DNA of 64,000 nt, taken from a virus. Both the position numbers and the translations under genes were made by a program. The stretch covers positions 32,001 through 96,000 of the IMG/VR virus record IMGVR_UViG_3300037478_000708; one strand, written 5' to 3'. This document shows, piece by piece, positions 93 through 57,471 of this stretch. The stretch's first letter is position 1. Every line of letters begins with the position of its first letter. The notes beneath the pieces are model-generated. The model saw nothing but the letters and a program-made list of their open reading frames with translations, had not been told where the DNA came from and did no database searches.

Positions 93-3000
93 ATGCCGAA
101 GAACATCCAAGGGCTGACGGGCGAGATCGTGACGTACATGATGCGGGGGCGCCGCACGCCGTCGGATCTCCGGACGCACTTTCGCCTGTCCGTCAAGACG
201 GCGCAGCACGTCTACGACCTCGAGCCCGACGCCTTCGGCCCCTCCGGTAGGGGCCGGCAGTGGTACCACACGCAGGTCGGGGCGCTCCTCAAAGCCCCGG
301 ACGCGTTCGAGGCGGAGATCCCTGCGACCCCGCACCGGTCCAGCCTGAACGAGGTCGCCGCCGGGGCGCTGCGCGCTTCCGTGAGCCCGCTGGCCGAGCA
401 CGAGCTGTCCGAAGGCATCGCGGACACGCATCAGGTCAAGATCGCCACGCGCACGCTGCAGCTCTCGGCGATGGGCGCGAAGATCATGGGTGGCATGGAC
501 CACGCGGGCGCGGTCAAGGTGCTCCGCGCGAACGGCTGGCCGGACACGAAGATCAAGGCCGCCCTCAAGAAGCACGGCCACGCGGACCCCGACGTCAAGA
601 AGTGGCTCGGCGAGTCCAGTGACACGCTGTCACTGGACGAGGCCCGTCCGGAGCCGATCAAGGTCCCCGAGACGGTCTACAAGGAGAAGCTCGCCAAGCT
701 GTCGTCGAAGGACAAGGAAGCGCTGCGCAACGTGACGATGGCGTCGCGTGGAGACCACCGGCTGTTCAAGCCGCTGGACGCGGACGGCGCCGCACTCATC
801 AAGCGGCTGTTCGGCGAGGTGACCGAGACGCACGTCGGACGCGGGCCGCAGAAGCGGGAGAGCGCCGCGGAGGGTGCCGGTGTAGGAAGTCCGTCGCGCA
901 CCGGCTCGCACGCGATCGTCGAGGGTGTGCTGCGTGTGAACGACCGCATTCGCGAGCGCGAACTGCTCGGGGAAGCCGGCGGCGCGGGTCAGGAGGCCCC
1001 GAAGGATCCGAAGTGGGGCACGCCCTACGGCTTGCCGATGCTCCACCCGAGCGGGACGGCGATTCGCATGCGCCGCAAGGGGCAGCGCGTTCGTTTCTTC
1101 GACCTGAATGGCAAGCAGGTCGGCCCCGAGCACGCCAACGTTGCGCCGGCCGTCGCGTGGGCGATGAGCAAGGGTTTCGTCACGGAGAGCGTCGACGAGG
1201 CCGGCAAGCCGCTCAAGGTGAAGTGCGGGCAGTGCGGCAACGTCTTCGCGACCAACAAGGACTACCCCAAGTGTCCGAAGTGCGGCAGCAAGGACGTCGA
1301 CCTGCCGGAGTCGGTCGACGAAGCCGCGAGCAAGACGGTGCTCGGCAAGTACAAGCAGAAGACCGTCACGCTGCGCGACTACGGCGATGGAGACGTGGAC
1401 ATCCTCGTCGGGTCGCTGGCCGTGCCTCTGGACACTGCGAAGAAGAAGGGGATCGCGCCTCCGAAGAATCCGCGTGACCTCGCTCAGGTGAGCGCGTTCT
1501 TGGACAAGGCGCTCCCGATCCTGTTCCCGGCGAAGGCGGGGTTCTCGATCGAGTCCGTGGACGAGGCGTCCGGGACCACCGTTCGCGCGGCGGTGCGGCT
1601 CGACTGGTTGAAGGGCGCGACTGCGGGCGTCACGCCGGACGAGAAGGTCGTGGTCTTCCGCTCGTCCGACTACGACAACAAGGGAACCGTCAGCGGTTCC
1701 TACGCCGTTCTCGGGCGCTCTTCGCAGCGCGACCTGTTCTCGTCGCTTCACCTCGAGTGGAACTCCGGCTTCACCCTCGACCGGGGGCAGCACGCGCAGA
1801 ACCGCAAGCGGGCGGAGCAGGCGTTCAAGAAGCTGCCGACCAGCGAAGCCAACGACGACAAGACCGACGACCTGCCCGCGAAGGCCGAAGCCGACCTCAA
1901 GGCCAAGGCGAAGGAGATGGGCGCGATCAAGGTCTCCGGCAAGGGCCCGAGCGTGAACGCGACGTTCGACGACAAGAAGAAGGCGCAGGCGTTCCTCGCG
2001 CACGCCGAGAAGGTCGGCAAGGCCGCGATGCGCCGCTCGGGCGACGAGGAGTACACGGTTCACATCGACGAGTCGGTCGAGCGGTACGCGGGCGCGAAGA
2101 TGGTGGGCGGTTCCGGGGCGGTACCGTTCAGCGCGCTCAAGGTGGGCGCTCAGTTCCGCTTCCCGAAGTCCGACGAGATCAACACGAAGACCTCGGAGGC
2201 GGGCAGCTACAAGACGGCGAACGGACGCAAGTTCAAGACGGGCAAGCACGCGGCGGTCATCCCCGCGAAGTCGGACGAGTCGCTCGACGAAGCCGCCGGA
2301 ACGATCGTGCGGACCTTCTCCTCGGGGTACGTGGCGCTCCGCCTGCCCAGCGGCATCACCGTGCTCGCGCGGGACACGGGGGATGGTGAGCCCATCGCGC
2401 ACGCGAACGTGGCGCAGGCCAAGAAGGGTCTCGCCCGGTTCCTGAGCGCGAACCCCTCGGTGAACGCTCGCGTGCGCGACGCGAAGCGGCCGTTCTACAT
2501 CCTCGTCGAGGACGTCAGCGAGAGCCTCGACGAAGCCGCTCCCAAGAAGAGCAAGGGCCACATCGCGTTCCTCGGCGACTTCGAGTACCTCATCGTCGGT
2601 ACCGACCTCGCACGCGCTCCGATCAGCAACGTCATGGACGTGCGCACGGGGAACCGCCTCGCGCGCTTCGAGGCGACCAAGGCGGCGGCCGACACCGCGA
2701 TGAAGATCGCGTTCCAGGCGTTCGGCAAGCCGGTCGACCCGAAGGCGATGCAGCGCATGCGCAAGCTCCTCGGAGAGAGCCTCGAGGAAGACATCGACGA
2801 GGATGTGCGTCCCGGGCAGATGTTCGTCGTCGTCGACGTGTCGGTGCGCGGCGGGAAGATGATCGGCGAGATCTACACCGGTGCGGCGAGGGCCGACGCG
2901 GCGGCGAGCAAGCTGAAGGCGCGTGGGCAAAACGTGCAGGTCATCGACGCGCTCTGGTACGAGCCCGCCCGTCAGAAGCTCATCAAGTCGGGGCTCGTCG

Positions 3001-6000
3001 GGGAGGACGCGGAGCCCCGCGTGCTCGCACTTGGGGACGGTCGCTATGCCGTCGATCTGGGCGAAGGCGAGGCGCTGGTCAAGATCGTGGACACGCTCGA
3101 GGAAGCGATCGACGAAGCCGGTCGTCTCGCGGTCAAGTGCATGGAGTGCGGAAAGAAGTTCAAGACCGCTTCCATGCTCCCCGACTGCCCGAAGTGCGGC
3201 GGTTCGGACATCGAGCCCGACTACGACGCGCCCTCCGCGAAGAAGAGCTACGCGGCCGGCAGGACGCGCAAGCGTTCCGTCGGACACGAGTCGATCATCG
3301 AAGGCGCCGTGCCGAAGGTGGGCGATCGCGTCGCGCTTTCTCGCGACCACCTCCGCGGCACCGGCAACCAGACGGGTACCCTGCCGCAGTTGCGGGGAAC
3401 CGTGACCGCGGTCAGCGGTGCGGGCATCGCGACCGTCGACTGGGGTCGCGGGGTGAAGTCCCCGCGCGTGAACGTGAAGAACCTCGTCGTGCTCGGCAAG
3501 GGCGACAGTCTCCCCGTGGAGTCCGCCGACGAGGGGCTCGCGCCGCTCGAGGTCACCGTCACGGACGTCTTCGACAACGGCGCGTGGTGTCACCCGCGCT
3601 ACACGGTCAACGTTCGCACGAACAACAACGAGGACTACACGTTCGGCATGTTCGAGCCCGGCACGGAGCCCGCGGCGCTCCAGACCGTCGAGGACTTCCC
3701 GAACTTCACGAACTTCATCAAGGGCGCCGCTCGCCCCGGCGAGTACATGGAGCGCGTCGAAGTCGCCGCTCTGCCCGACGTGCTGCGCACCCAGCTCCAG
3801 ACGCTTCTCGCGCGGGCCGACACCTACGACCGCACGATGGAGTTCGATGAGGCCGCCGACGAGTCGGCGATCCGCAGCTTCGACGTCATGGCGCAGATGC
3901 GCTGGGAAGAGACGCTCAAGCCCGGCGCGAAGGTGATGGTCTACTGGACCGCGGGCAGCTTCGGGCACTACCAGGGGAAGGCCACGGTCAAGTCGCTGAA
4001 CAAGTCGAGCGTGACTGTTACGCTCGACCACGATGTTCCCGATCGGAGCCGTCTCGGTGGCGCCGGTTACGCGAAGGGCAAGAAGATCAACGTGCCGCGC
4101 GTCATGGCGAACTACGGCCGCAACACGTGGTCGATGGGCTTCAACGCGGTGCACCCGCTCGGCGGGCCGCAGGCGTTCATGGAGGGCGCGGTCGACGAGT
4201 TCACGAGCGCGGCCGTGCCTTCCGTCGGCAACCTGCATCCCTGGGCGCATCCCTACGGCAGCGAGGTCGAGTTGATGGACGAGCCCGACGAACTGGACGA
4301 CGAACAGCTCGACGCGCGCGGCAACATCGAGCCGATCGACGAGGCGATTCAGCCGACGGTTGCGGGCTTCCGGATGTTCGTGGTCGGTGCGCTGACGCAG
4401 TGGGACAAGCAGCAGGAGGTGCGCGCGTCGAAGAAGCCCGGCGGCAGTCACAGCCCCTACGCGCTGTCGCTCTACCTCGAGGCGCTCCACCGCGGGGAGA
4501 AGAGCAGCACCATGCGCGGGGTGAAGCCCGACTCGATGGATCCCGAAGATCTGCGCAAGTTCGCCAAGATGCTCGGCGAGCAGTTCTTCTCCGACATGCC
4601 CCCGATCCGGAAGACGCTCAAGGCGATCGACGCGTACCTCGCGTCGGGCAAGGCGCCGAAGTACCCCGGCTCGAGCAGCCGCTCACTTCGGAGCGAATCC
4701 CGCGATGAGACTGCACGTCTCGCCAAGGGGCTCGTCTACACCGCGGTCGCCGCGGCGGAGGACGGCCGGCTGACGGAAGCCGTCGCCAAGCTCCGGGCCG
4801 CGGGCGAGACGCTCGACGAAGACGCCCTCGAGGGCCTGCTTCCCGAAGACGTCGTGGAAGCGCTCAACGAGTGGGCAGACGAGAACGACGTCGACGACGC
4901 GATCGTCGAAGGCTACGCGGTCGCGCTTCGGCTCGGCCTGGACGACCACGTGTACGGCCTCGACGAAGCCACCTCGGCGGCGAAGCTGCTCGACACGGCC
5001 GACAGCAAGCTCATCTCCGAGCTGCGCAAGGGACTCGTCAAGGTCGGCGCCGCCGCCAAGGAAGCGAAGCGCGGTCAGGCCGAGATGGAGAAGCGTCTCG
5101 GTGTGGGCAAGAGCACGGCCAAGGATCAGCTCAAGATCGTGGTCAAGGAACTGGAGGCGTACCGCACCCTGCTCGATCAGATCATCAAGCAGGCACAGGT
5201 GGCCGAGAGCGTCGACGAAGACCTCGCCGAAGCCGGGTCGCTGCACGACGCGCTCCTGAACCACTTCGTCCGCAACCGCGGGCGCTCCTACACGGCGAGC
5301 GAGATCGCGCGGCTCTTCTCCGCGTCCACCGCGGAGTCGATGAAGACGCTCTCCTCGCTCGTCAACGAGGGCACGCTCATGTTCCGGCGCGGCGAGGGCT
5401 ACTCCCTGCGCGGCAATTCGAGCGCGCTGCGCATCCCCGCCAGCCTGCACGGTTCTCGCGTGGGCAACTTCGTGAACCAACGCACGGAGGAGGCGGAGTT
5501 GGACGAGGTGCGCAACTCCGGTCGCCCGACGAACTGGCGGGGCAGCGGCGAGGCGGGTCGAGACGCTCTCCAGGCCCGCGGTTCGGCGAAGACCAAGGCC
5601 CGCTTTCAGGTCACGCAGCTCGTGGCCAAGAGCGGCACGACGCCCGCGGTGCTCGCCGACGTGTCGAAGCTCTCCACGTCGATGCCGGCGCTCAAGTACC
5701 GGGGCAAACCGGGCGAGAGCTACGACATCGTGTACAAGGGCCGGGTCATCGGCACGCTGCGCTCGTCAGGGAGCGGCTCGCTGCCCTGGACGGTCAAGCG
5801 CAAGGACGGCACCAAGCTCTCCGACGTCGGCTTCGGCTCCGTGCACCACGCCGTCACGCGCGCCCTGGCCGACGCTCTCGGCGACGCCTGGGGCAACGCG
5901 GAAGAGTCCGCGGATGGCCTTGGTGAAGGACTGGGGCGCAAGGTCTTCTACACCCGGGATGGCGTCGGTTCGTCGAAGTACACCGTCAACTACCACGATG

Positions 6001-7811
6001 GGAAGACCACGCATTCGGACGGCAGCCCGTTCTACGGGATCTTCGTTTTCCCGAACAAGGCGAAGCGCGACCAGAAGATCCGTGAGCTTTTGAAGCAGGG
6101 CTACGAAGAGGTCAGCTCTGCGGTTCACGAGACCACGACCTCCGGCACGGTCGGCGGCTACCGCCGCGGCAAGCTCGAGCAGCCCGAGAACAAGGGCCGC
6201 ACGGGCGGCATCCGCGACGACGGCCCCGGCAAGAAGGGACCGCGTTCGGTGTGGTCGCCCGACGCCATCGCCAAGGTGCTCGAGCAGATGCGCGAGGCTC
6301 TGCCCGGCCACTCCGACGAAGAGCTGCTCGAGCTGCTCGACGAGGCCCCCGAGGAAGGCGCCCGGAAGGACGTCACCGTCTTCGGGGACGGCAAGGGCAA
6401 GTGGTTCGTGGCGGATCCCTTCGGCAAGCAGGAGCGCTACGCCACGAAGACAGAGGCCGTCCAGGCTGGTCGGGATCTCGCGCAGCACGAGAACTGGGGC
6501 TTCGTGGTCAGCGACCCCGACGTCACCCTCGCGAGCGAGTCGATCGACGAGGCTCCCGAAGACCTCCGCGAGATCGATCCCGTCGACACCATCCAGCGGG
6601 GAGACAAGGTGACGATCCTGATCCCGGCCGGGCTCGGCAGGCAGGGGCAGGAGTGGAAGCCCAAGGCGGGCAAGGCCGTCATGCGCGGTCCGCACGGGTG
6701 GGTCCTCAACATGGGCGGTGCCCACGGAACGCCCGGCGTCGCCTCCTCGCGCAACATCGTGAAGGTGCAGCGCGGCGGGAAGACGCTCTACCACAACCCC
6801 CGTCCGGATGTGCTCGGCGAGTCCGTGGACGAGGCGGGTGCGGACAACCGGCGTCCGGTGAAGCTCGGGCCGATCGAGAAAGAGCTGCTCATGCAGCTCC
6901 GCGAAGAGCGCGGCAAGCACGGCATCGAAGAGCTGATCGCCGCGAGCCCGATGCTCAAGAAGCTCCCGTATCAGGACGTGCTCGTCGCCGCGCAGAATCT
7001 CGCGACGCTCGGTCTCATCGGCGGCAACGGCCGCGGGATCGTCCTGCCCTTCGGCGAGTCCGAAGACGCGGGTCTCGACGAGGCGTCCGTGCCGGTCAAG
7101 GGTCACGACACGGTGACGGAGGTCGGCTTCGCCCGCGGCACGTACTACTACGTCTCCAAGAGCGGTCTCAAGAACTCGGTCGCGGTCAAGCGCAAGGACC
7201 GTGCATCCGCCCGCGAGCGGTTCCGGCAGATGCTCCGCAACGAGGCGAACGTCAAGGACGCCGACGCGCTCATCAAGCAGATCGACGCCAAGCTCGGCGA
7301 GTCCCGCCAGTGGGCGCGCTACGAGGTGCAGCTCGACGAAGAGTTCTTCGATCGCTACGACGCGCTTGGCATCGAGCGGCCCGATCCGAAGACGATGTGC
7401 CACGGTCAGTGCGAAGGCACCGGCTGGGTGCCGATCGGGCCTCCCGAAGGCCGCGTGCCGGAAGGCCGTCTGTTCTGCCCCGCCGACAACGAGGAGCCGT
7501 GGCGTACGCTCTGGCTCGAGGCGGAAGAGAAGGATCCGACCGACGATGGGTACCACATCGTCAAGTGCCCCGACTGCGAGGGCACGGGCAAAGATCAGGG
7601 CGACGCCTCTCACGGCGAGCGCCGCCGAGCGCAGAAGACGGAACGCACCACGATCGAGTTCCCCGAGTCCGCCCTGGAGACGTACGTACTCGCCGCGCAG
7701 GCCGCGGGGCTCGCGGAGGACGATCCGTGCTTCGTCTTCGAGGACGGCCGCTTCACCGCGGAGCTGCCCGCCGACGTGGCCCCGCGCATCATGGAACTCG
7801 TCGCTCAGTGA
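93..7811 (+). CDS. Giant modular protein (2572 aa); putative capsid-packaged polyprotein with repeated ES[VLI]DEA linkers
   Basis: Long ORF with strong GC3 bias. ES[VLI]DEA at nt 1185, 1308, 1551, 2277, 2520, 6537, 6819 plus many variants separate 35-140 aa modules (Zn ribbons, wHTH-like, SH3/KOW-like, DUF2188-like). CDS is secure; function is inferred. Confidence 0.8.
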   Translation: MPKNIQGLTGEIVTYMMRGRRTPSDLRTHFRLSVKTAQHVYDLEPDAFGPSGRGRQWYHTQVGALLKAPDAFEAEIPATPHRSSLNEVAAGALRASVSPLAEHELSEGIADTHQVKIATRTLQLSAMGAKIMGGMDHAGAVKVLRANGWPDTKIKAALKKHGHADPDVKKWLGESSDTLSLDEARPEPIKVPETVYKEKLAKLSSKDKEALRNVTMASRGDHRLFKPLDADGAALIKRLFGEVTETHVGRGPQKRESAAEGAGVGSPSRTGSHAIVEGVLRVNDRIRERELLGEAGGAGQEAPKDPKWGTPYGLPMLHPSGTAIRMRRKGQRVRFFDLNGKQVGPEHANVAPAVAWAMSKGFVTESVDEAGKPLKVKCGQCGNVFATNKDYPKCPKCGSKDVDLPESVDEAASKTVLGKYKQKTVTLRDYGDGDVDILVGSLAVPLDTAKKKGIAPPKNPRDLAQVSAFLDKALPILFPAKAGFSIESVDEASGTTVRAAVRLDWLKGATAGVTPDEKVVVFRSSDYDNKGTVSGSYAVLGRSSQRDLFSSLHLEWNSGFTLDRGQHAQNRKRAEQAFKKLPTSEANDDKTDDLPAKAEADLKAKAKEMGAIKVSGKGPSVNATFDDKKKAQAFLAHAEKVGKAAMRRSGDEEYTVHIDESVERYAGAKMVGGSGAVPFSALKVGAQFRFPKSDEINTKTSEAGSYKTANGRKFKTGKHAAVIPAKSDESLDEAAGTIVRTFSSGYVALRLPSGITVLARDTGDGEPIAHANVAQAKKGLARFLSANPSVNARVRDAKRPFYILVEDVSESLDEAAPKKSKGHIAFLGDFEYLIVGTDLARAPISNVMDVRTGNRLARFEATKAAADTAMKIAFQAFGKPVDPKAMQRMRKLLGESLEEDIDEDVRPGQMFVVVDVSVRGGKMIGEIYTGAARADAAASKLKARGQNVQVIDALWYEPARQKLIKSGLVGEDAEPRVLALGDGRYAVDLGEGEALVKIVDTLEEAIDEAGRLAVKCMECGKKFKTASMLPDCPKCGGSDIEPDYDAPSAKKSYAAGRTRKRSVGHESIIEGAVPKVGDRVALSRDHLRGTGNQTGTLPQLRGTVTAVSGAGIATVDWGRGVKSPRVNVKNLVVLGKGDSLPVESADEGLAPLEVTVTDVFDNGAWCHPRYTVNVRTNNNEDYTFGMFEPGTEPAALQTVEDFPNFTNFIKGAARPGEYMERVEVAALPDVLRTQLQTLLARADTYDRTMEFDEAADESAIRSFDVMAQMRWEETLKPGAKVMVYWTAGSFGHYQGKATVKSLNKSSVTVTLDHDVPDRSRLGGAGYAKGKKINVPRVMANYGRNTWSMGFNAVHPLGGPQAFMEGAVDEFTSAAVPSVGNLHPWAHPYGSEVELMDEPDELDDEQLDARGNIEPIDEAIQPTVAGFRMFVVGALTQWDKQQEVRASKKPGGSHSPYALSLYLEALHRGEKSSTMRGVKPDSMDPEDLRKFAKMLGEQFFSDMPPIRKTLKAIDAYLASGKAPKYPGSSSRSLRSESRDETARLAKGLVYTAVAAAEDGRLTEAVAKLRAAGETLDEDALEGLLPEDVVEALNEWADENDVDDAIVEGYAVALRLGLDDHVYGLDEATSAAKLLDTADSKLISELRKGLVKVGAAAKEAKRGQAEMEKRLGVGKSTAKDQLKIVVKELEAYRTLLDQIIKQAQVAESVDEDLAEAGSLHDALLNHFVRNRGRSYTASEIARLFSASTAESMKTLSSLVNEGTLMFRRGEGYSLRGNSSALRIPASLHGSRVGNFVNQRTEEAELDEVRNSGRPTNWRGSGEAGRDALQARGSAKTKARFQVTQLVAKSGTTPAVLADVSKLSTSMPALKYRGKPGESYDIVYKGRVIGTLRSSGSGSLPWTVKRKDGTKLSDVGFGSVHHAVTRALADALGDAWGNAEESADGLGEGLGRKVFYTRDGVGSSKYTVNYHDGKTTHSDGSPFYGIFVFPNKAKRDQKIRELLKQGYEEVSSAVHETTTSGTVGGYRRGKLEQPENKGRTGGIRDDGPGKKGPRSVWSPDAIAKVLEQMREALPGHSDEELLELLDEAPEEGARKDVTVFGDGKGKWFVADPFGKQERYATKTEAVQAGRDLAQHENWGFVVSDPDVTLASESIDEAPEDLREIDPVDTIQRGDKVTILIPAGLGRQGQEWKPKAGKAVMRGPHGWVLNMGGAHGTPGVASSRNIVKVQRGGKTLYHNPRPDVLGESVDEAGADNRRPVKLGPIEKELLMQLREERGKHGIEELIAASPMLKKLPYQDVLVAAQNLATLGLIGGNGRGIVLPFGESEDAGLDEASVPVKGHDTVTEVGFARGTYYYVSKSGLKNSVAVKRKDRASARERFRQMLRNEANVKDADALIKQIDAKLGESRQWARYEVQLDEEFFDRYDALGIERPDPKTMCHGQCEGTGWVPIGPPEGRVPEGRLFCPADNEEPWRTLWLEAEEKDPTDDGYHIVKCPDCEGTGKDQGDASHGERRRAQKTERTTIEFPESALETYVLAAQAAGLAEDDPCFVFEDGRFTAELPADVAPRIMELVAQ
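614..638. repeat. Dispersed palindrome copy 1
   Basis: GTCCAGTGACA-CGC-TGTCACTGGAC, 11-bp perfect arms, inside the giant ORF. Confidence 0.9.
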
Positions 7812-7825
7812 CACGCTGTCACCGG
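7806..7825. repeat. Dispersed palindrome copy 2
   Basis: CAGTGACA-CGC-TGTCACCGG; contains the TGA stop (7809-7811) of the giant ORF. Confidence 0.85.
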
Positions 7826-7837
7826 TTGACCCGGGTG

Positions 7838-7867
7838 TAGACAGGTGCCCACGCAGGTCTTTACTAT
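7838..7867 (+). promoter_or_regulatory. Putative promoter (TAGAC class)
   Basis: TAGACA-N18-TACTAT, upstream of AGGAG and ATG 7911. Confidence 0.6.
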
Positions 7868-7910
7868 CTCCCTCGACACACGGTCCGCAGATACGCCCTA
7901 GGAGCCACGT

Positions 7911-9356: not shown

Positions 9357-9413
9357 AGCCTCACGGAAGCAAGCTGGGCTAGTTCTCTCCGAACAGTCTT
9401 GCGCGCCATGCTT

Positions 9414-9453
9414 GGGCCTCCCCGTCTCGCCAACGGGGAGGCCCCCTTCTTTT
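9414..9453 (+). terminator. Intrinsic terminator between convergent genes
   Basis: GGGCCTCCCCGT-loop-ACGGGGAGGCCC followed by CCTTCTTTT. Confidence 0.75.
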
Positions 9454-16569: not shown

Positions 16570-17042
16570 TCCTCGTCAGCGGACTCCCTTCCAGCGGCAA
16601 TCGGCTGATCGCGGAGCACATCAAGCGCGGCGTTGCGGCAGCGCGCTCCGAGGAGTTCGTGCAGATCTGGCACGGGGATAACGAAGCTCCGAACGTCACG
16701 CGGCCGGAGGGAGAGCGTTTGGCCGTCGTCATGCCCGTGCGCGGTGAGTCGTTTCGGCTGCGCTCCGTCGACGAGCGCCTGCGCAGAGGTGAGGGGGTCC
16801 TGCCGAGCGACGTCGCGCAGATGCGCGCCAATCTCGTCCGGTTTCTCAGTTGGAACGACTGCCCTGTCTACGTGCTCAGCCTGGAGGGGCTCGCGCAGAG
16901 TCCGGAGGCCGAAGGGCGTCTTCTCTTCACGTATCTCCGGCTGCCTTGGGTACCCTGGCCAGCCGCGTTCTCTTCGGATCCGCGCAGGCCCGAGCTAGGG
17001 CGGGTCTACGATCCGAACCGACGCTACGGCCCCGTCCAGTGA
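16566..17042 (+). CDS. Sulfotransferase-family-like protein
   Basis: ILVSGLPSSGN resembles the 5'-PSB loop G-x-P-R-S-G-T; LSLEGLAQSPEAEGRLLFTYLRLPW resembles YEDLxxxPxxxxxxLxxFLGLxW. Confidence 0.55.
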   Translation: MILVSGLPSSGNRLIAEHIKRGVAAARSEEFVQIWHGDNEAPNVTRPEGERLAVVMPVRGESFRLRSVDERLRRGEGVLPSDVAQMRANLVRFLSWNDCPVYVLSLEGLAQSPEAEGRLLFTYLRLPWVPWPAAFSSDPRRPELGRVYDPNRRYGPVQ

Positions 17043-17058
17043 CAGCGTGTCACTGGAC
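17034..17058. repeat. Dispersed palindrome copy 3 (opposite loop orientation)
   Basis: GTCCAGTGACA-GCG-TGTCACTGGAC; contains stop 17040-17042 and abuts ATG 17059. Confidence 0.9.
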
Positions 17059-25211: not shown

Positions 25212-25232
25212 CCAGTGACACGCTGTCACTGG
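25212..25232. repeat. Dispersed palindrome copy 4
   Basis: CCAGTGACA-CGC-TGTCACTGG in a divergent intergenic region. Confidence 0.9.
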
Positions 25233-25276
25233 CGTTCCGAGGCCGAACCCTACCGCGCGAACGCGCGGCGGGCCTG

Positions 25277-25305
25277 TAGACCCCGCGATTTTCCGCACCT
25301 ACACT
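25277..25305 (+). promoter_or_regulatory. Putative promoter (TAGAC class)
   Basis: TAGACC-N17-TACACT. Confidence 0.65.
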
Positions 25306-34385: not shown

Positions 34386-34410
34386 GCCCAGTGACACGCT
34401 GTCACTGGGC
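34386..34410. repeat. Dispersed palindrome copy 5
   Basis: GCCCAGTGACA-CGC-TGTCACTGGGC just after the tube stop. Confidence 0.9.
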
Positions 34411-48219: not shown

Positions 48220-48240
48220 CCAGTGACAGCGTGTCACTGG
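48220..48240. repeat. Dispersed palindrome copy 6 (opposite loop orientation)
   Basis: CCAGTGACA-GCG-TGTCACTGG immediately after the spike stop. Confidence 0.9.
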
Positions 48241-48271
48241 ACCCGAACCCCCCTACATCGAGGGAATCCCA

Positions 48272-48928: not shown

Positions 48929-48934
48929 GACGCT

Positions 48935-49237: not shown

Positions 49238-49246
49238 CCGTCCCTG

Positions 49247-49275
49247 TAGAGAGGCGCCCGGACACCCTGTAGACT
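49247..49275 (+). promoter_or_regulatory. Putative promoter (TAGAC-class variant)
   Basis: TAGAGA-N17-TAGACT. Confidence 0.5.
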
Positions 49276-49287
49276 GCCCCCCGACCG

Positions 49288-49728: not shown

Positions 49729-49732
49729 CTAC

Positions 49733-51400
49733 ATGCCGGACGTCAGCCCGCCGCAACTCTCCTACACCGACCGGGACTTCGCGACCATCTTCGACGCGCT
49801 CGAAGGCTTCGTGCAGGCCACCCGGCCGGAGGACTTCACCGACTTCTTCACGTCCAACCTGGGCATCACGCTCATGGAGATGCTCGCCTTCGTCGGCGAT
49901 CTCCTGAGCTACGGGCAGGACGTCACCGCGCAGGAGGTCTTCCTGGCCACTGCGCGGCGCCTGGAGAGCGCCCTGCGGGCCGCGCGCTCCGTCGGCTACG
50001 TTCCCCGGTCGGCCACGGCCGCGACGGTCGTGGTGGCCTCCGGGGCCCTCCCGGCCAACGTGGTGAGCTTCGGCGCGATCGTGCCCGCCGGCAACTCCGT
50101 CCAGGGGGCCAACGGCCTTCGCTACGAGATCGTCGAGGACGTGACGATCATTCCGGGCTCGTCGACCACCTCGTTCACGCTCCGCGAGGGGCAGAGCTTC
50201 ACTGAGGCGTTCACGCCGACGAAGCAGCCGAACCAGAAGTTCACCGTTTCGCGTGGCATCGTGGAGGAAGCCTCCTGGCAGGTGTTCGTCGGCGACCCCG
50301 ACAACCCGCTCAACCAGTGGACGCAGGTGCCCAACGTGCTCTTCGAGACGTCGGACACCGAGACCTATCAGGTCTTCTTCGACGGGCAGGGTCGGCTGAC
50401 GGTCATCTTCGGCAACGGGACGGCCGGCAAGGTCCCCGACGCCACGGTCACGATCAACTACCGCACGACCAACGGGGCGGCCGGCAACGCGGGCGTCGGA
50501 ACGATTCAGGGCTCGCTCCAGGCCGAGGTGATTGGCACGTCGACCACGGCCGCGATTCCGGTCAAGAACTCGTCGCAGCCGGCGACCGGCGGCCAGGCGC
50601 GCGAGAGCGTGGCCGAGCTGCGCGTGGCGATCCCTGCCTTCATCCGCACGCTCGATAAGGTCATCACGATCGCGGACTACGAGGAGGCGGTCGCGACGCA
50701 GGCGGGCGTAGCGCTCGCGTTCGCGGACAACCCGATCGCGAGCCTGAACGGCAACGTGGTCCGCGTGCACATCTGGGCTTCCGAGCAGTTCACCTTCGTC
50801 TCGACGAGCCCGGGGCAGGGGTTCACGTCGGCGGTCAACTATCAGCGCTACGTGCAGGCACCTACGGCGCGGGTCTACACCGTGCAGCAGTACCTCCGTC
50901 CGCGCACGATCGCGACCGTGCACAACGTCGTCATCCGTCCGACCGTCGCGCAGGTTGACGTCGACCTGGGTCAGGTCAAGTACGACACGCTCAACCGGAC
51001 GGAGGACGTGCACGAGGCGATCGTCGAGGCTCTCGTCGAGCTGTTCGAGACGTCGAGCGGGTTCCTCATCCGGATCTCCGACATCTACAACGTCGTCAAC
51101 CGGGTGCCCGGCGTCATCGGTTTCACGATTCGCCAGATCACGTTCGAGCACATCGACTTCGACGATCCGAGTCTGGGAACCGTCATCGACGTCTACCGGA
51201 CCAATCAGGACATCACGGGGTCTCAGGGTGGGCCGTTCGATCCGCTTCAGGATCTCAGCATTCCCGCTGCGTCGGAGAAGAAGTTCTACGACGACGCCTT
51301 CCTGTACGACAACGAGATCCTCTTCGACTCCGAGATCGACTCAACGACGGTGCAGGCGATCAACCTGCGGTCGCTGGTCTTCACTCTCATCGCCGGCTAA
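49733..51400 (+). CDS. Baseplate wedge gp6 / BpJ-like protein
   Basis: YTDRDF, LAFVGDLLSY, FGNG..GKVP, YRTTNGAAGN, GGQARES, VITIADYE. Confidence 0.9.
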   Translation: MPDVSPPQLSYTDRDFATIFDALEGFVQATRPEDFTDFFTSNLGITLMEMLAFVGDLLSYGQDVTAQEVFLATARRLESALRAARSVGYVPRSATAATVVVASGALPANVVSFGAIVPAGNSVQGANGLRYEIVEDVTIIPGSSTTSFTLREGQSFTEAFTPTKQPNQKFTVSRGIVEEASWQVFVGDPDNPLNQWTQVPNVLFETSDTETYQVFFDGQGRLTVIFGNGTAGKVPDATVTINYRTTNGAAGNAGVGTIQGSLQAEVIGTSTTAAIPVKNSSQPATGGQARESVAELRVAIPAFIRTLDKVITIADYEEAVATQAGVALAFADNPIASLNGNVVRVHIWASEQFTFVSTSPGQGFTSAVNYQRYVQAPTARVYTVQQYLRPRTIATVHNVVIRPTVAQVDVDLGQVKYDTLNRTEDVHEAIVEALVELFETSSGFLIRISDIYNVVNRVPGVIGFTIRQITFEHIDFDDPSLGTVIDVYRTNQDITGSQGGPFDPLQDLSIPAASEKKFYDDAFLYDNEILFDSEIDSTTVQAINLRSLVFTLIAG

Positions 51401-51420
51401 CCCCTCAAGGAAAGAACCCA

Positions 51421-51876
51421 ATGCCCAGCCTGACGAACTACGGACAGCAGGTCGCCCTCTACGACGACAACCGCACCTTCCTCGCCGGTCTGACCGGTGC
51501 GACGCCCGCCCTCGTGGGCGGCATCGCGCAGATCGCCGCGGGGCTCGAGCTGTTCGCCGATACCGGCTCCGTGCTCGACAAGGACGCCTCCGTCCTGAAC
51601 CTCCCGAGCCCCGGCGGTGGCGGCTACACGGGCGTCATCGCGCTCACCAAGGGCGGCAACTGGTCCAACCCGAGCGCCAGCTCGGGCGACACGCAGATCG
51701 TGCTCACGCCGAACCAGACGTTCACGGCGACCGCCAACCCGATCAACGACATCGGCGGTGCCTACATCGAGGACGGCGACGACAACGTGCTCGCGTGGTG
51801 GGAGCGCTCGTCGCCGATCACCCTGGCGACGAACGACACCATCACGGCCGACCAGCTCACGATCCGGATCGTCTGA
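51421..51876 (+). CDS. Small virion / fibre-associated protein
   Basis: FTATANPINDIGGAYI...ITLATNDTIT. Confidence 0.55.
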   Translation: MPSLTNYGQQVALYDDNRTFLAGLTGATPALVGGIAQIAAGLELFADTGSVLDKDASVLNLPSPGGGGYTGVIALTKGGNWSNPSASSGDTQIVLTPNQTFTATANPINDIGGAYIEDGDDNVLAWWERSSPITLATNDTITADQLTIRIV

Positions 51877-51896
51877 TCGTCCTCGCGGACTGAGAC

Positions 51897-53480
51897 GTGG
51901 CGAGCTTCTTCATCGGCAACGGGGACGTTCCCGGGAACGAGCTGCTCAGTGCGAGCGGCACGTTCTTCGGGAACTTCATCCGTTCCATCACCACCGACCG
52001 ACTGCTTCAGGCCGGGACGTTCCTCGAGTGGTACTTCGAGACCTCGGGGGGCGGTGGTGAGTTCGGTGAGGGGCCCCCGCACTTTCCGCGCGTAGGCGGT
52101 CACGCCGTCCTGTCGGGCGCTCTGACGAAGGGCGGTCCCGCGGCCGATAACCCGCAGCTCACCGCTACCGCGAGCGTCACCGGGTCCCTGATCGTTTCGG
52201 CGGTCATCACCAACGCGGAGTTGTTGGCCGCGGGCAACCTCTTCGGGGGCTTGCAGATCGCGGTCTCGATCGTCGGCGAGATCACGGCCGCGTCGTTTCT
52301 CGCCGGTGACCTCATCGTGGCGCTCTTCCCGGAGCTGTCGCGAGACGCGATCGCGCAGGCGACGGGAGTGCGGCCGTGCTTCCCGTTGCTGATCTACCTC
52401 GACGACGTGAGCCACATCGGCAACCTGCATGAGCCCGACGGGGTGACGCCGAAGCTCGAACTCAACCAGGCGTTTCGCATGGCCGCGTCCTACACGGCGC
52501 CGCCGGGCGAACAGCTCGGACTCTTCGGTGCGTTGCCGAACTCCATCGGGATGCGCGTGCTCGTGGACCTCGAGGGTGACGGCATCGAAGAGGAGGCGAT
52601 TCTCTTCCGCCGGCCGGAGGAGAACGAGGTCGTGGCGCTGCTCGACGGCACCGTCGAGAAGTACGACGCGGAGAGCGGTGCTTGGGTCGCGCACACGACG
52701 CTGCCCCAGCGGGCCCTTATGGGGATGCGTGTCTTCGAGATCCTCGATCCGAACGGCATCTACGACTACTACGCGAAGCTCGTCGGGCTGAAGTACCATC
52801 AGCTCGCGTACGACACCCGGAAGATCCTCGACTTCATCGATCCGGAGCTGTGTCCGATCGAGCTGCTTCCGCTGCTCGCGTCGAACTTCGGTGCGGACAT
52901 CGACGCGGATCAGCCGGAGATCTTGCAGCGGGAGATCCTGCGGAGCTGGGTCCCGCTCATGCAGATCAAGGGGCTCGACCAGGCGGTCCGAGTTGCCTTG
53001 CGCATGCTCGGCTTCTCGGGTTACGCGACGCAGATCTGGATCAAGCCCGGCGGCTCTGCAACGGACTTCATCGAGAAGCCCTTCAACTACTCGAACGAGT
53101 TCCCGACGCCGAGCGATCCGACGGTCTACCACCCGGCCGCGCAGGTCGCCATCCACCTCAACGAGCTGGATGGCACGCCCTTCGTCGTCATCGACGATTC
53201 GACCAAGCAGAAGGTCGCCACGTTCCTCAAGATGAACGTGCTGCCTGCGCACGTGCGCATCCGGACGTTCACGACGGACATCGTGGTCGAAGCGGAGGAT
53301 GCCGTCGTGGCCTCCGATGCCGTGGTGGCCTTCGAGGCTGCGCACATTGCTCTCGTGGCCGCTGCCGCGGGCCCCGCGACGACCTCCTTCGTCGTGTCCG
53401 TGCTTCCCGTCAAAGCCACCGTCGCTGCGCAGGCGGGCGCGGCAACTACCCTGGTCGCCGTGGAGGTCATCTCGCCGTGA
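51897..53480 (+). CDS. Baseplate wedge gp7 / P2 gpI-like protein
   Basis: IDPELCPIELLPLLASNFG...REIL...IKG; VLPAHVRI. Confidence 0.75.
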   Translation: MASFFIGNGDVPGNELLSASGTFFGNFIRSITTDRLLQAGTFLEWYFETSGGGGEFGEGPPHFPRVGGHAVLSGALTKGGPAADNPQLTATASVTGSLIVSAVITNAELLAAGNLFGGLQIAVSIVGEITAASFLAGDLIVALFPELSRDAIAQATGVRPCFPLLIYLDDVSHIGNLHEPDGVTPKLELNQAFRMAASYTAPPGEQLGLFGALPNSIGMRVLVDLEGDGIEEEAILFRRPEENEVVALLDGTVEKYDAESGAWVAHTTLPQRALMGMRVFEILDPNGIYDYYAKLVGLKYHQLAYDTRKILDFIDPELCPIELLPLLASNFGADIDADQPEILQREILRSWVPLMQIKGLDQAVRVALRMLGFSGYATQIWIKPGGSATDFIEKPFNYSNEFPTPSDPTVYHPAAQVAIHLNELDGTPFVVIDDSTKQKVATFLKMNVLPAHVRIRTFTTDIVVEAEDAVVASDAVVAFEAAHIALVAAAAGPATTSFVVSVLPVKATVAAQAGAATTLVAVEVISP

Positions 53481-54049
53481 GGGTTCACGATCTGCTTCGC
53501 GTTCGCGGTTCCCTGCGCATCGTGCACATCCCGGGCGATTGCATGGGCGAGGATCCGTGCTGCCCGCTGTCGCCCGACGCCGTGGACCGTCTCTGCCACA
53601 CCGGCCGCGCGCACGCTTCCTGTCGCTACGAAAACCTCGTGGTGGATACGGGTCTCGAGATCATCCGCGCGCTCATCGGCTTCGGCCTCAACTTCCCGAC
53701 GACCGGCGCGTTCGGCGTGCAGGACACGAGCGACTTGCAGATCACGAGCATGCGCATCGGCTCCGCGCTCTCGCCTCCCGCGCCGGCTGCAGGTGACACG
53801 GACATCTCCGTCGTGCCGCCGCTCTACACGATCCTCGGCGTGACGGCCTTCTATCCGAGCGCAACGTCCGTCACGCTGGCCGGCGTCGTGCCGCAAGCGC
53901 AGTCAGCGCTCGACGGCGTGGGTCTGACCGAGGAGGGTGCATTCGCCGAGAACGGTGCCATGCTGGCCCGGGTGACGTTCCCCGCTGAGGTCAAGATCCC
54001 GACGCACGCGCTCCAGTTCGAGCACCAGATCTTCATCGGACGGCCTTAG
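53477..54049 (+). CDS. Baseplate / fibre-attachment protein
   Basis: ENLVVDTG...LTEEGAF...MLARVTF...K pattern; GTGA overlap. Confidence 0.65.
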   Translation: MRVHDLLRVRGSLRIVHIPGDCMGEDPCCPLSPDAVDRLCHTGRAHASCRYENLVVDTGLEIIRALIGFGLNFPTTGAFGVQDTSDLQITSMRIGSALSPPAPAAGDTDISVVPPLYTILGVTAFYPSATSVTLAGVVPQAQSALDGVGLTEEGAFAENGAMLARVTFPAEVKIPTHALQFEHQIFIGRP

Positions 54050-54528
54050 CGAACATCTTTCCACGATCTGAAATGCACGGCCGCACTGATAGTCCCCGGC
54101 GAGACGCCGAACGAAGCCGCGATGTTGCTCAGCGTCTCTCCTCTACCTCTTCGTTTCCGGGCTTCTCGGACGCGAGCTTCCGTCAGCCGCCTGCGGTACG
54201 TATTCCGCCGGTTCTCGCCGATAGTGACGTACCGCAGGTTGTCCTCGCAGTTCGCTTGGCGATCGTCGTTCTCGTGGTCAATTTCGTAGCCGTCGGGGCA
54301 GGGGCCGAGGAAGGCTTCGGCGACGAGCTTGTGTGTGTTGAAGCGGCGCGTCTCGCCTCGTCGGCAGAGCATGACCGACAGGTAGCCGTTGGACTTCGTG
54401 GTCTGTCGGAGAATGCGTCCTGCAACGGTGTTGCGGTCGCCGCCCCGTACGCGCTTCACGCGTCCTCGATCGGAGACTGCGTACCAGCCCTCGTAGCCGA
54501 CGACGGGCTTCCATCGTTCTCGCACCAT
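54046..54528 (-). mobile_element. Free-standing NUMOD4-HNH homing endonuclease with C-terminal HTH
   Basis: ERWKPVVGYEGWYAVSDRGRV (NUMOD4), HKLVAEAFLG...EIDHENDDRQANCEDNLRY (HNH), TLSNIAASFGVSPGTIS (HTH). Confidence 0.9.
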
Positions 54529-54559
54529 GCGGCGGTAGACTACACGAGGAGCGTTTGAC

Positions 54560-55807
54560 GTGCCTGAACTTCCCGAGATCCCGATCGACCCGATCAACCC
54601 GCCGACGTCGATCGACCTGACGGATGAGGACAATACTTATCCGCTGCTCGAGTCGATCGTCGGTCCGCCCAACCCGGACTCGGTTGGACCCGAGGCCGGC
54701 AACCGGCAGCCGCGGGCACTCGACCTGCGCACGGAGACCCTGCGCGAGGCGGTCAACAAGCTCATCGAGGTCACGAATTCGCTGAACGAGAACCTCCTGC
54801 ACCGCGACGGCGCGAGTGCGGTCGTGGACGGGTCGCTGTCGCCGAGCTACATGCGCGGTGACCTCGACATGGGGGACGATCCGCTGAGCCCCTCGTTCCA
54901 CCGGGTCATCAACATGGCCGACGGCGTGGACGACACCGATGCCGTCACCAAGCAGCAGCTCGACACGCTCTCGGCGTTCCTGAACTCGCTCCAGAATCAG
55001 CTCAACGGCGCTCTCAAGACGAACGGCACGAACCAGATGCTCGCGCCCCTCAACATGGGGGGTTTCCGCGTCGAGTTCCTGGGCGATCCGGTCAACGTCG
55101 CCGACGCCGTGAACAAGGGCACGATGGACACCGAGCTGGATCAGATCCGCGCCGACTACGTGCGCCGCGACGGCGGCAACACGATGATCGGCAATCTGGA
55201 CCTCGGCGGGTTCAAGATCGTGAACATGAACCTGGCCATCCCGTCGAACGACGGGGACGGCGTGAGTCGGGGCTACCTGTTGCAGGTGCTCTCGGATATC
55301 GCTGCGACCCCGCCGGGTGCGATCGCGGTCTGGGCAGGGTCCGAGGGCGCCGTGCCGACCGGGTGGCTTTTGTGCGCGGGGCAGACGGTTTCGCAAGCAA
55401 CCTTCGCGAACCTCTTCGCCGTGGTCGGAACCACGTACAACATCGGCGGCGAACCGGGCGGAGAGTTCCGCCTGCCCGATCTCCGCGGTCGCGTGCCGGT
55501 GGGTCTCGACAACATGGGGGGCAGCTCGGCGAACGTCCTCACGAGTGCGCAGGCCGACATCCTCGGCGGCACGCTCGGCGAGGAGTTCCACACGCTCACG
55601 CTGGACGAGATCGCGTCGCACACGCACCAATACGACGATCGCTACGTGGCCGTCGCTACCGGAGGCGCGGAGGAGGGTCCGTCCGTGGTCAACGCGACGT
55701 CCGACTTCGTGACCCTGACCGGTCAGGTCACGGATCCCCAGGGCAACGACAACCCGCACAACAACGTGCAGCCGTCGATCGCCATGAACTTCATCATCAA
55801 GATCTGA
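54560..55807 (+). CDS. Tail fibre with tail-collar domain (paralog 1)
   Basis: LNMGGF...DA.(T/N)K repeats; PPGAI...PTGWLLCAG...FRLPDLRGR; HNNVQPS. Confidence 0.85.
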   Translation: MPELPEIPIDPINPPTSIDLTDEDNTYPLLESIVGPPNPDSVGPEAGNRQPRALDLRTETLREAVNKLIEVTNSLNENLLHRDGASAVVDGSLSPSYMRGDLDMGDDPLSPSFHRVINMADGVDDTDAVTKQQLDTLSAFLNSLQNQLNGALKTNGTNQMLAPLNMGGFRVEFLGDPVNVADAVNKGTMDTELDQIRADYVRRDGGNTMIGNLDLGGFKIVNMNLAIPSNDGDGVSRGYLLQVLSDIAATPPGAIAVWAGSEGAVPTGWLLCAGQTVSQATFANLFAVVGTTYNIGGEPGGEFRLPDLRGRVPVGLDNMGGSSANVLTSAQADILGGTLGEEFHTLTLDEIASHTHQYDDRYVAVATGGAEEGPSVVNATSDFVTLTGQVTDPQGNDNPHNNVQPSIAMNFIIKI

Positions 55808-55816
55808 GGTGTTCTC

Positions 55817-56191
55817 ATGACCGCGACCCCTAACAGCCCGGTTCTCTTGGATCTCCTCTCCGCGGAGGAACGCGCCGAGATCCGCAAGGAGAGCGACGCT
55901 GAGATCGATCGTCTCCTCAACGGCCACGTCGCTCCGGTCTGCCTGCCCTCGGTGCAGGACCGCGGCGGGTCTGTGAGCGTTGCGAAGGCGTTGTATGAGG
56001 CGAGGGTGCTGCCGGGCGTCCGTCACGAGGAAGGCTGCCCTCCACTGCACGACTTCACCCAAGTCGGGTACGCGCACGAGAAGGAGAGCCGAGGTCTCCG
56101 AAACACGGAGCAGTTCGCGTGGTGCGTGGTGGCTCCGCTGGCGTTCTCTCTCGGTGTTCTCGTCGCCACGCTCTTTTTCGTCCTGTTCTGA
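55817..56191 (+). CDS. Hypothetical protein with C-terminal hydrophobic segment
   Basis: GAGGT RBS; stop overlaps the next ATG. Confidence 0.5.
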   Translation: MTATPNSPVLLDLLSAEERAEIRKESDAEIDRLLNGHVAPVCLPSVQDRGGSVSVAKALYEARVLPGVRHEEGCPPLHDFTQVGYAHEKESRGLRNTEQFAWCVVAPLAFSLGVLVATLFFVLF

Positions 56192-57411
56192 TGGCTCAGT
56201 GGCCCCCGACTCCTGTTTCTCCGCTACCCAGCACGGGTGCGACATGGCCGTCTCGTACGGAGGTCGGTCCGCTCACGCTCATCGGTCCGACTGCGGAGAA
56301 CCAGCAACCGTCGGCCCTCGACACGCGCACCGAGACGCTTCGGCAGATCACGAACGTCTTGATAGGGCTCTACAACTTCATCCAAGACTTCTTCTTGGAT
56401 CGCGACGGGGCGGACCTTCCGATCGCCGACTCGACGCAGGGCTCCTACTTCATGCGCGGCAACATGGACCTCGGCGGGTTCAAGATCGTGAACCTCGCCG
56501 ACGCGCAGGACATCCGGGACGCGATTACGATTCAACAGCTCGAGGCGGTGCAGTTCTCTGCGGAGGACGACGTGGAGCAGGTGCTCGACTCGTTCGTCGT
56601 CAAGCAGGACGGAAGCGCAGCGATGATCGCGCCTCTCAACATGGGGGGCTTCCGGATTCTCAACATGGCCGCCGCGGTCATTGACACCGACGCGATCCGT
56701 AGGGACACGCTCACGGCCGAGGAGGCGACGATCACGTCGGCCTTCCTGCGTCGGGTGGGCGTGCCGGGCATGCTGGCCAACCTGAACTTCGACGGAGACG
56801 ATCCACTCGAACCGGGGTTCATCCCGACGAATCTGGGGGACCCGACGGGCCCCGCGGACCTCGTGAACAAGCGCTACCTCGACGAGCAGGTTGCGATCTC
56901 CGCTGCCCAGGACGTCCCTGTCGGCGCCGTGGTGCCGTACGCCGGTCCGCAGGGGACGATTCCGGTCAACTTCCTCGTCTGCGACGGCCGTGAGGTGTCG
57001 CGCTTCACCTACCAGAATCTCTTCAACATCATCGGCATCGCCTACGGCAGCCCCACGAGCGCCTCGGTGTTCAAGTTGCCCGATCTCCGCGGCCGGACCG
57101 TGGTCGGCATGGACATCATGGGCGGGCAGCCTGCGGACGTGCTCACGAGTTCGTTCGCGGACCTGCTCGGGGGCAAGGGGGGCGTCGAGCGGTACGCCCT
57201 GAAGGGCGGGGAGATGCCGTCGCACACGCACACCTACGACGACGTGACCTACGCGCAGGGTGCCGGCGGAGCGGAGATCGGCGACGACAACGCCTCCGAC
57301 AACAACAACGTGGTCGGAATCAGCCCGAGCGTGATGGGGAGCGCGGGTTCGAGCACGCCGCACAACAACGTGCAGCCGTCGATCGCGCTGAACTGGCTCA
57401 TCCGCTACTAG
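56191..57411 (+). CDS. Tail fibre with tail-collar domain (paralog 2)
   Basis: Same architecture: ALDTRTETLR, PVGAVVPYAG, FKLPDLRGR, HNNVQPS. Confidence 0.85.
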   Translation: MAQWPPTPVSPLPSTGATWPSRTEVGPLTLIGPTAENQQPSALDTRTETLRQITNVLIGLYNFIQDFFLDRDGADLPIADSTQGSYFMRGNMDLGGFKIVNLADAQDIRDAITIQQLEAVQFSAEDDVEQVLDSFVVKQDGSAAMIAPLNMGGFRILNMAAAVIDTDAIRRDTLTAEEATITSAFLRRVGVPGMLANLNFDGDDPLEPGFIPTNLGDPTGPADLVNKRYLDEQVAISAAQDVPVGAVVPYAGPQGTIPVNFLVCDGREVSRFTYQNLFNIIGIAYGSPTSASVFKLPDLRGRTVVGMDIMGGQPADVLTSSFADLLGGKGGVERYALKGGEMPSHTHTYDDVTYAQGAGGAEIGDDNASDNNNVVGISPSVMGSAGSSTPHNNVQPSIALNWLIRY

Positions 57412-57450
57412 CCCGTTCCCCATCACAACGCGGGAGAACTGACACACGGC

Positions 57451-57471
57451 CCGGTGACACGCTGTCACTGG
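57451..57471. repeat. Dispersed palindrome copy 7
   Basis: CCGGTGACA-CGC-TGTCACTGG. Confidence 0.85.

Follow-up and report, generated by a model that had tools for sequence, protein, structure and literature searches.

The stretch of DNA analysed here (the window) comprises 64,000 nucleotides, bases 32001-96000 of the 156,008-bp viral genome held as IMG/VR record IMGVR_UViG_3300037478_000708 (hereafter G000), which has a G+C content of 66.7% and is rated 100% complete; our subject is a palindrome that recurs along this genome, together with the protein that may read it. Among the products encoded in the window are a major capsid protein of the Gp23 type, a tail sheath and baseplate wedge proteins, from which we take the genome to be that of a T4-like myovirus. 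Its closest cultured relatives share at most 32% capsid identity with it, uncultured relatives in IMG/VR share 50-85%, and a megablast search with 12 kb found no counterpart among GenBank phages. By a codon-usage gene caller, the genome has 184 genes, which occupy 94% of its length; 172 lie on the + strand.

An exact search for the 15-bp core GTGACASSSTGTCAC finds seven copies in the window, at 619-633, 7808-7822, 17039-17053, 25215-25229, 34391-34405, 48223-48237 and 57454-57468. Their centres (626, 7815, 17046, 25222, 34398, 48230 and 57461) and the gaps between them (7189, 9231, 8176, 9176, 13832 and 9231 bp) are exactly those of the original prediction, which had been made from the sequence alone. 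Read on the + strand, the central triplet is CGC in five copies and GCG in two. Dinucleotide-preserving shuffles of the window (n = 100) contained no match to GTGACA-CGC/GCG-TGTCAC, and none is expected by chance. Permitting two mismatches within the window brings no further copies, so that the family is sharply defined, without degenerate members. The CCA...TGG flanks that had been described as usual are present in five of the seven, and several copies reach 25 bp (GTCCAGTGACA-CGC-TGTCACTGGAC).

The copies differ in length and setting. Copy 1 (614..638, core 619-633) has a CGC centre and 11-bp arms (GTCCAGTGACA) and lies within a 2572-amino-acid (aa) open reading frame (ORF) at 93-7811. Copy 2 (7808..7822) consists of the 15-bp core only; the TGA at 7809-7811 is the stop codon of the same ORF, and a promoter at 7838-7867 begins 16 nt downstream. 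Copy 3 (17034..17058; GCG centre, 11-bp arms) overlaps the stop codon of ORF 16566-17042, and in both of these stop-overlapping copies GTGACA itself supplies the TGA. Copy 4 (25212..25232; CGC centre) abuts the start of a small minus-strand ORF and is 53 nt upstream of a TGTAGAC promoter, copy 5 (34386..34410; CGC centre, arms GCCCAGTGACA) lies between a tail-tube-like gene and the next gene, copy 6 (48220..48240; GCG centre) is 4 nt past the stop of ORF 46968-48218, and copy 7 (57454..57468; CGC centre) is 26 nt upstream of a TGTAGAC promoter. Three copies near promoters, two overlapping stop codons and one inside a coding sequence (CDS) are also the counts given earlier. The minus-strand ORF beside copy 4 (24976-25221) begins 8 nt from the palindrome and has a Lys-rich N-terminus (MSPAKKRSAYKK...) and no Pfam match.

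Scanning the whole genome raises the number of exact copies to 17, all identical, and both orientations occur although G000 is transcribed almost wholly from one strand. By the codon-usage gene calls, 15/17 copies fall in intergenic DNA or on a start or stop codon; of the remaining two, one is 38 nt from a gene end and the other is deep within the 2572-aa ORF. The circular gaps between the 17 copies have a coefficient of variation (CV) of 0.415, and the probability of a CV this low or lower is 8e-5 under uniform placement and 2e-5 under placement at random gene boundaries. Since such a CV is rare under both schemes, the spacing that had been called quasi-regular on the basis of seven copies is statistically real (P ~1e-4), and the genome-wide scan finds the sites spread evenly and not confined to the window. 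Two of the gaps, 7815-17046 and 48230-57461, are both exactly 9231 bp, an exact tie with P ~0.007 under random placement. We rejected a duplication as its source, as the two segments share no blastn or tblastx matches; the two 218-aa genes that follow the sites of these gaps are unrelated to each other. Outside G000, the exact palindrome 19-mer was found only once, as a single copy in one unrelated viral contig.

Inverted repeats near gene ends could act as RNA, that is, as hairpins that terminate transcription, mark processing sites or stabilise mRNA where cistrons meet. The 9-11-bp arms of the G000 copies have folding energies of -14 to -24 kcal/mol (z down to -5), and most copies lie just past stop codons, one of them after the tail-tube gene. 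However, no copy is followed by a T-run, a terminator scan of window positions 1-20000 omits the copies at 626, 7815 and 17046 but finds a conventional terminator at 9414-9444, and there is no Rfam match at the gathering threshold anywhere in the window. These three results all favour a protein-recognised DNA site over an RNA hairpin, as had been preferred from the start. Furthermore, both loop orientations occur on the coding strand, the copy at genome position 25116 has a promoter on one side and the start of a 2314-aa gene on the other, and another copy is within a CDS.

The comparison with relatives bears on the same question. The exact G000 motif is absent from the relatives examined, and a de novo dyad-symmetry scan showed that each of them has its own over-represented dyad with the same geometry as that of G000: GTGAC-N5-GTCAC in G005 (10 copies), TTGAC-N5-GTCAA in G004 (20 copies), CTGGAC-N5-GTCCAG in G002 and G003 (7 and 3 copies), ATTTACGC-N-GCGTAAAT in G006 and G009 (17 and 6 copies), CCAACAA-W-TTGTTGG in G008 (5 copies), ATTAACGA-W-TCGTTAAT in L013 (2 copies) and TGAC-N5-GTCA in G007 (15 copies). 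When these dyads are aligned on their centres, the only bases common to all are A(-4) and C(-3), together with G and T at +3 and +4. Even spacing recurs as well, with a CV <1 in 8/8 genomes tested and even-spacing P values of 1e-4 in G000, 0.004 in G006 (with tandem pairs collapsed) and 0.003 in G007; the intervals are ~9 kb in G000 and 1.5-5 kb in the relatives. The G006 palindromes often form tandem pairs or triplets 27-49 bp apart (8330/8358, 17454/17481, 37936/37985/38030), whereas the G000 copies are single.

In the short-armed relatives, sites fall within a CDS in 8/10 cases in G005 and 10/15 in G007. Because these copies are mostly intragenic and lack T-runs, we read the family as sites on double-stranded DNA and not as terminators; their arms are 4-5 bp long and their 5-nt centres unpaired. 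In addition, the copies within a genome are identical and all switch sequence together between genomes, neither of which structure alone would require. Altogether, these patterns point to double-stranded DNA that would be read by a genome-specific protein with two-fold symmetry (a dimer), and they leave an RNA function highly improbable. The original prediction had drawn the protein-recognised site from the conserved CGC spacer: the protein-read DNA stands, but the relatives vary the centre freely, so that CGC is not a recognition feature of the family as a whole. The two G000 half-sites differ at this point, one ending in ...ACAC, like those of the TTGACAC-type relatives, and the other in ...ACAG.

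Site position is conserved across genomes while the sequence changes in concert. The window junction at 17046 is syntenic with sites at G002 25612 and G003 14960 (TGGAC-N5-GTCCA), that at 34398 with sites at G002 42691, G003 32145 and G004 63577 (TTGACA-CAA-TGTCAA), and that at 57461 with a site at G002 66300; at syntenic junctions a site is retained while its two arms change together. Most striking are L013 and G008, which are 95.3% identical over 13.3 kb: at each of the two shared sites their palindromes differ at -2, -6 and -7, symmetrically and by the same substitutions. In L013, a 34-bp G+C-rich hairpin (1880-1913) directly precedes the palindrome; it is not in the 95%-identical G008 (L065 ~1420).

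These comparisons also bear on whether the copies are selfish or DNA-transaction elements: palindromes like repetitive extragenic palindromes or miniature inverted-repeat transposable elements, targets of a nuclease, nickase or recombinase, cruciform signals for replication or packaging, or sites for a host factor such as MatP. That the copies are identical even in their non-palindromic centre and occur in both orientations fits copy-and-paste spread. On the other hand, the syntenic sites across relatives with 50-85% major capsid protein identity argue against recent insertion, and there are no target-site duplications and no larger element bodies. The host-factor variant draws on Escherichia coli matS, a 13-bp site (GTGACRNYGTCAC) whose multiple dispersed copies, bound by MatP, organise a chromosome domain. 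The resemblance noted earlier holds for the half-sites, GTGAC/GTCAC, which equal those of matS, but not for the spacer (N5 versus N3), and the relatives use other half-sites. A search of the G000 genome for MatP (PF06303) gave no match, and sites for a host factor would not be expected to differ between phages that are 95% identical. We consider this group of explanations very unlikely. For a role in packaging or as an injection pause, which had also been put forward, we found no evidence in its favour.

As binders of the palindrome, winged helix-turn-helix (HTH) modules of a polyprotein and ParB-N proteins of the window had been proposed; a better candidate, a canonical ParB with an HTH, is encoded outside the window. 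The ParB-N proteins in the window were rejected as HTH readers, as they are fusions of ParB_N to a DNA methylase and have no HTH. The better candidate is a 435-aa ParB-family protein at genome 132092-133399, 36 kb past the window end, with a Pfam ParB_N match (1.1e-14) and with the motifs GERRLEAA and AENSEDGR in its translation; the third Arg of the GERRxR motif is Glu in the G000 protein and Arg or Lys in its orthologues. Its HTH region is covered by phmmer alignments to Spo0J (1vz0, 2e-13), Noc (7ng0) and Caulobacter ParB (6t1f), and HTH_ParB Pfam matches are present in the orthologues. In the AlphaFold model, residues 1-85 form a disordered, Lys-rich tail, whereas the N-domain with the HTH and a helical C-terminal domain (346-434, predicted local distance difference test score ~88) are predicted with confidence; the C-terminal domain has no Pfam match. 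Foldseek searches with this model return ParB, Noc, Spo0J and KorB as the best matches, led by ParB bound to CDP/CTPgammaS, and the template modelling (TM) score against the KorB structure 8qa9 is 0.70 on the target. The gene is an orphan: neither a ParA (AAA_31) nor an integrase was found in the complete G000 genome, and 15/15 orthologues lack the ParA-binding motif [LFI]G[KR]G[LFI]. One of the 17 palindromes, at genome 133474, lies 67 nt past the parB stop codon. A tblastn search with the protein against cultured phages, plasmids and GTDB genomes gave similarity to the N-domain and HTH only, with no full-length orthologue and no relative of the C-terminal domain.

We gathered full-length ParB orthologues and scanned their flanking DNA for dyads, at 15 loci. 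In T4-like replication modules (L235-L241, G006, L077 and L155/156), the order RecA, ParB, 5'-3' exonuclease is conserved; a dyad of the local type directly follows parB in L235 (TGGAC-GCTGG-GTCCA) and L236 (TGGACA-CTG-TGTCCA), and a TTGACA-type dyad directly precedes it in L077, L156 and L238. In the unrelated phage L242 (41% GC), TAACA-N3-TGTTA occurs 14 times within 21 kb, where 0.05 occurrences would be expected, and one copy falls on the stop codon of parB. In L245, where parB is beside an integrase gene, there are three copies of (CCCG)GGGACA-N3-TGTCCC(CGGG), and in L246, which resembles an integrative and conjugative element, there are two of KTGACA-N3-TGTCAA, one of them 61 nt upstream of parB. 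The ParB subfamily and dyads of the same geometry, NNNAC-N5-GTNNN, thus co-occur in all four genomic contexts, and ParB is the only gene that these contexts have in common. A perfect dyad of this form is found within 350 bp of a parB end at 8/15 loci, where chance gives 4.5% per locus (binomial 8e-8), and dyads are enriched 4-fold near parB ends (P 7e-4). As a positive control, the same scan recovers the parS site TTTCAC|GTGAAA beside canonical parB genes.

On the ParB tree, the dyad type follows the protein rather than the genomic context: the sisters L237, from a phage, and L245, from the integrase-bearing element, both have GGGAC, and the sisters L235 and L236 both have CTGGAC. Four specificity residues of ParB and Noc, at positions 173, 179, 184 and 201, have been defined experimentally (PMC7383237), and we mapped them onto the orthologues through the alignment to 6t1f. 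Of 322 columns, only 17 separate the GTGAC, TTGAC and TGGAC classes perfectly; positions 179 and 201 belong to these 17 and are chemically the most coherent of them (A/V versus C versus S at 179, and N/T versus I/V versus K/R at 201).

Since dyads lie beside parB and the site type follows the ParB tree, this comparative evidence leads us to infer physical binding, and we think it probable that the palindromes are genome-wide, parS-like binding or loading sites for the phage's own orphan ParB. A genome-organising site of the parS kind had been among the original suggestions, and it gains support from the even genome-wide spread and from the association with ParB. In this mechanism, ParB would act as a dimer that reads both half-sites, xxxAC(A)...(T)GTxxx, in double-stranded DNA. 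For the clamp behaviour and the biological role of the protein, we infer from ParB, Noc and KorB by analogy: bound ParB would close into a nucleotide-dependent clamp and slide onto flanking DNA. With 17 sites ~9 kb apart, ParB could mark or coat the whole phage chromosome, and such coverage would explain the even spacing. Where a site lies 16-65 nt from a promoter, or coincides with the -35 box as in a relative, it may in addition allow transcription control of the KorB kind (PMC11790492).

Several observations weigh against this proposal. Canonical parS is an even 16-bp palindrome, whereas the phage sites have an odd centre with one extra central base pair, and the invariant asymmetric CGC centre in G000 is not accounted for by a symmetric dimer. 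A two-residue recognition code formulated post hoc from the separating columns (S at the equivalent of 179 specifying G(-6), and N/T at the equivalent of 201 specifying G(-7)) is rejected as stated, because in a prospective test P0008, predicted to have TTGAC, was found to have GGGAC, and the prediction for P0041 was half right. The 20-kb orthologue locus L075 has no dyad family; three copies each of GCGTG-N5-CACGC and TCGAC-N6-GTCGA were considered there and look like chance. In G006 and L240, the nearest site is ~1.5 kb from parB. Moreover, the ParB loci are phylogenetically related, so that the statistics overstate their independence, and the G008 and L013 contigs, between which the palindrome was swapped, carry no parB for a comparison of covariation. 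Finally, the ParB_N-methylase fusions of G000 could read the sites instead of ParB.

The distribution of promoters bears on a further explanation. Ten promoter-like sites of the form TGTAGAC-N16-18-TANNNT are on the + strand, eight of them intergenic and five 18-65 nt from a palindrome. Within the window, the copies at 7815, 25222 and 57461 are 21-53 nt upstream of promoters of this type. The promoter beside copy 2 (7836..7867, +) reads TGTAGACA-N18-TACTAT, was also found by an independent scan (at 7838-7867) and is not part of the palindrome; that beside copy 4 (25275..25305, +) reads TGTAGAC-N18-TACACT. In the relative G004, five palindromes constitute the -35 hexamer and spacer of a repeated promoter, TTGACA-N17-TATACT. 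Judged by position, some sites are placed such that they could affect transcription, and most are not. As side observations, the TGTAGAC class stands ahead of virion gene blocks (window 7836, 11471, 18815, 20364, 25275, 30806, 49268 and 57487, all +), and its GGTGTAGA element also occurs in G002. The G004 promoters (L030-L034; 5390, 28391, 28812, 31798 and 41591) form a ~60-bp gene-strand cassette in which an A/T-rich UP-like tract precedes TTGACA-N17-TATACT, reminiscent of the mobile early-promoter cassettes in T4-type phages.

The palindromes might, accordingly, be operators of another dimeric phage regulator (a global repressor, an activator or a roadblock), much like the stoperators of Cluster A mycobacteriophages or the CIR sites of phiC31, or sites of a ParB_N-methyltransferase fusion, the link to the canonical ParB being indirect. 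The promoter-proximal sites, the -35 overlap in G004 and the 15/17 G000 sites at gene junctions are what such operators would look like; most G000 proteins have no Pfam annotation, which leaves room for an unseen HTH protein, a fusion gene adjoins copy 3, and the simple ParB recognition code failed. Against this, the shorter sites of the relatives are mostly intragenic and far from promoters, operators are not expected to be evenly spaced, and it is ParB alone that is common to the four dyad-bearing contexts and whose tree the dyad type tracks. We therefore regard this explanation as possible but unlikely. Among the minus-strand genes beside the sites at 25222 and 96306, which were checked as regulators, the sole Pfam domain is an SNF2 helicase. 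The two fusion genes are paralogous (window 11606-12859 and 15325-16569, the first with a weak methylase match), and a third methylase, of the N6/N4 type, is at genome 21031-22323; all three are kept in G002, G003 and G008, and they are possible alternative readers, or clients, of the palindromes.

The proposed pairing of ParB and palindrome can be set beside known systems. The closest in layout is KorB of the IncP plasmid RK2 and its operator OB, with a core TTTAGC-G/C-GCTAAA, where the sites are scattered, some of them a few base pairs from promoters and others distant, and KorB acts as a sliding clamp (PMC11790492). G000 shares with it a ParB-family protein with a CTPase fold and an HTH, a palindrome with an odd centre, and sites both near promoters and far from them; 17 sites are distributed over 156 kb, five of them promoter-proximal and the rest far from any TGTAGAC promoter. 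Unlike G000, which is without ParA, KorB works with a ParA (IncC) and with the clamp-locking KorA; no KorA partner turned up in G000, where no search was aimed at KorA-like proteins and most small proteins are unannotated. In contrast to RK2, a 60-kb plasmid, G000 is a 156-kb T4-like, apparently lytic phage, its sites are significantly evenly spaced, and the C-terminal domain of its ParB is unrelated by sequence to that of KorB. Noc of Bacillus, with its binding sites (NBS), is a ParB paralogue without ParA that has a CTP switch and many dispersed palindromes (PMC7383237, PMC8429893). The phage protein is likewise an orphan ParB and aligns to Noc structures with E 1e-12. However, Noc has a membrane-targeting N-terminal helix where the phage ParB has its disordered, Lys-rich tail, the NBS is an even site of 16 bp, and Noc serves in cellular, not viral, division-site control.

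The likeness to ParABS (parS TGTTTCAC-GTGAAACA) lies in the order of N-domain, HTH and C-terminal domain, in the GERR and ENxxR motifs and in the site beside parB, and the G000 half-site AGTGACAC resembles the parS half TGTTTCAC (GT..CAC). In contrast to ParABS, there is neither a ParA nor a ParA-binding motif, and the 17 sites are genome-wide and not an origin-near cluster. Dispersed repeats are also found in actinobacteriophages, as the stoperators of Cluster A, the 17-bp dyads of Cluster O and the CIR sites of phiC31, which comprise tens of near-identical, mostly intergenic sites; as a likeness to the G000 sites, their lineage-specific sequence co-evolves with a phage protein. The readers of these repeats are known or presumed to be the immunity repressors of temperate phages, and stoperators are asymmetric and orientation-dependent. 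Unlike in those phages, there is no repressor or integrase here, and the sites of the relatives are within genes.

Orphan ParBs are common on phages and other mobile elements, where their jobs are largely unknown (PMC12704722). Our literature searches found no published description of such a lattice of ParB and palindromes, and the use of ParB as a genome-wide docking protein is not yet described for a T4-like phage of this kind. What G000 offers is a testable pairing of one canonical ParB with 17 identical, evenly spread sites in a complete T4-like genome without ParA or integrase. If the pairing is true, what holds for ParB, Noc and KorB as sliding clamps on chromosomes and plasmids would extend to the marking of an entire viral genome of lytic type. 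In addition, the clade lends itself to study as a natural experiment in how DNA recognition evolves, since every lineage uses a half-site of its own and, between near-identical genomes, all sites have changed together.

A bolder extension, which we hold to be quite unlikely, is that the sites serve self-identity: ParB-CTP clamps loaded every ~9 kb would cover the chromosome, recruit phage proteins and separate phage DNA from that of the host or of co-infecting relatives, and the switching of palindromes would reflect selection for private barcodes. The proteins recruited might include the ParB_N-fused methyltransferases, through engagement of the N-domain, or Lys-tailed replication and recombination proteins, and the outcome could be a phage-specific chromatin or condensate. 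The concerted palindrome switch between 95%-identical phages would then represent incompatibility or exclusion among competitors.

We also made several minor observations on neighbouring genes. In the non-phage mobile elements L245 (3334-4551) and L246 (4169-5392), parB of this subfamily is followed by the gene of a conserved ~405-aa protein (27% identity, E 1e-17) that has no homologue in the phage G000. The RecA homologues of some relatives carry inteins (Intein_splicing), and a Hint/LAGLIDADG insertion is present in a PDDEXK nuclease gene (L235 8020-9915 and 18694-20328; P0005 contig). The 2572-aa ORF that contains copy 1 (window 93-7811) is adjacent to a second giant ORF of 2314 aa (genome 25146-32090); both are kept in G002 and G003, and their only Pfam matches are small and of the Zn-ribbon type (HypA-like, DUF7130/7129). 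Lastly, some palindromes are closely followed, on their downstream side, by a leader motif, CCCCTACATCGAGGGA / CACATCGGAGG, which is found in the window (48241-48270 and 17059-17085), in G002 (25627-25655) and in G003 (14975-15000); its sequence is conserved across these genomes although the adjoining palindrome differs.

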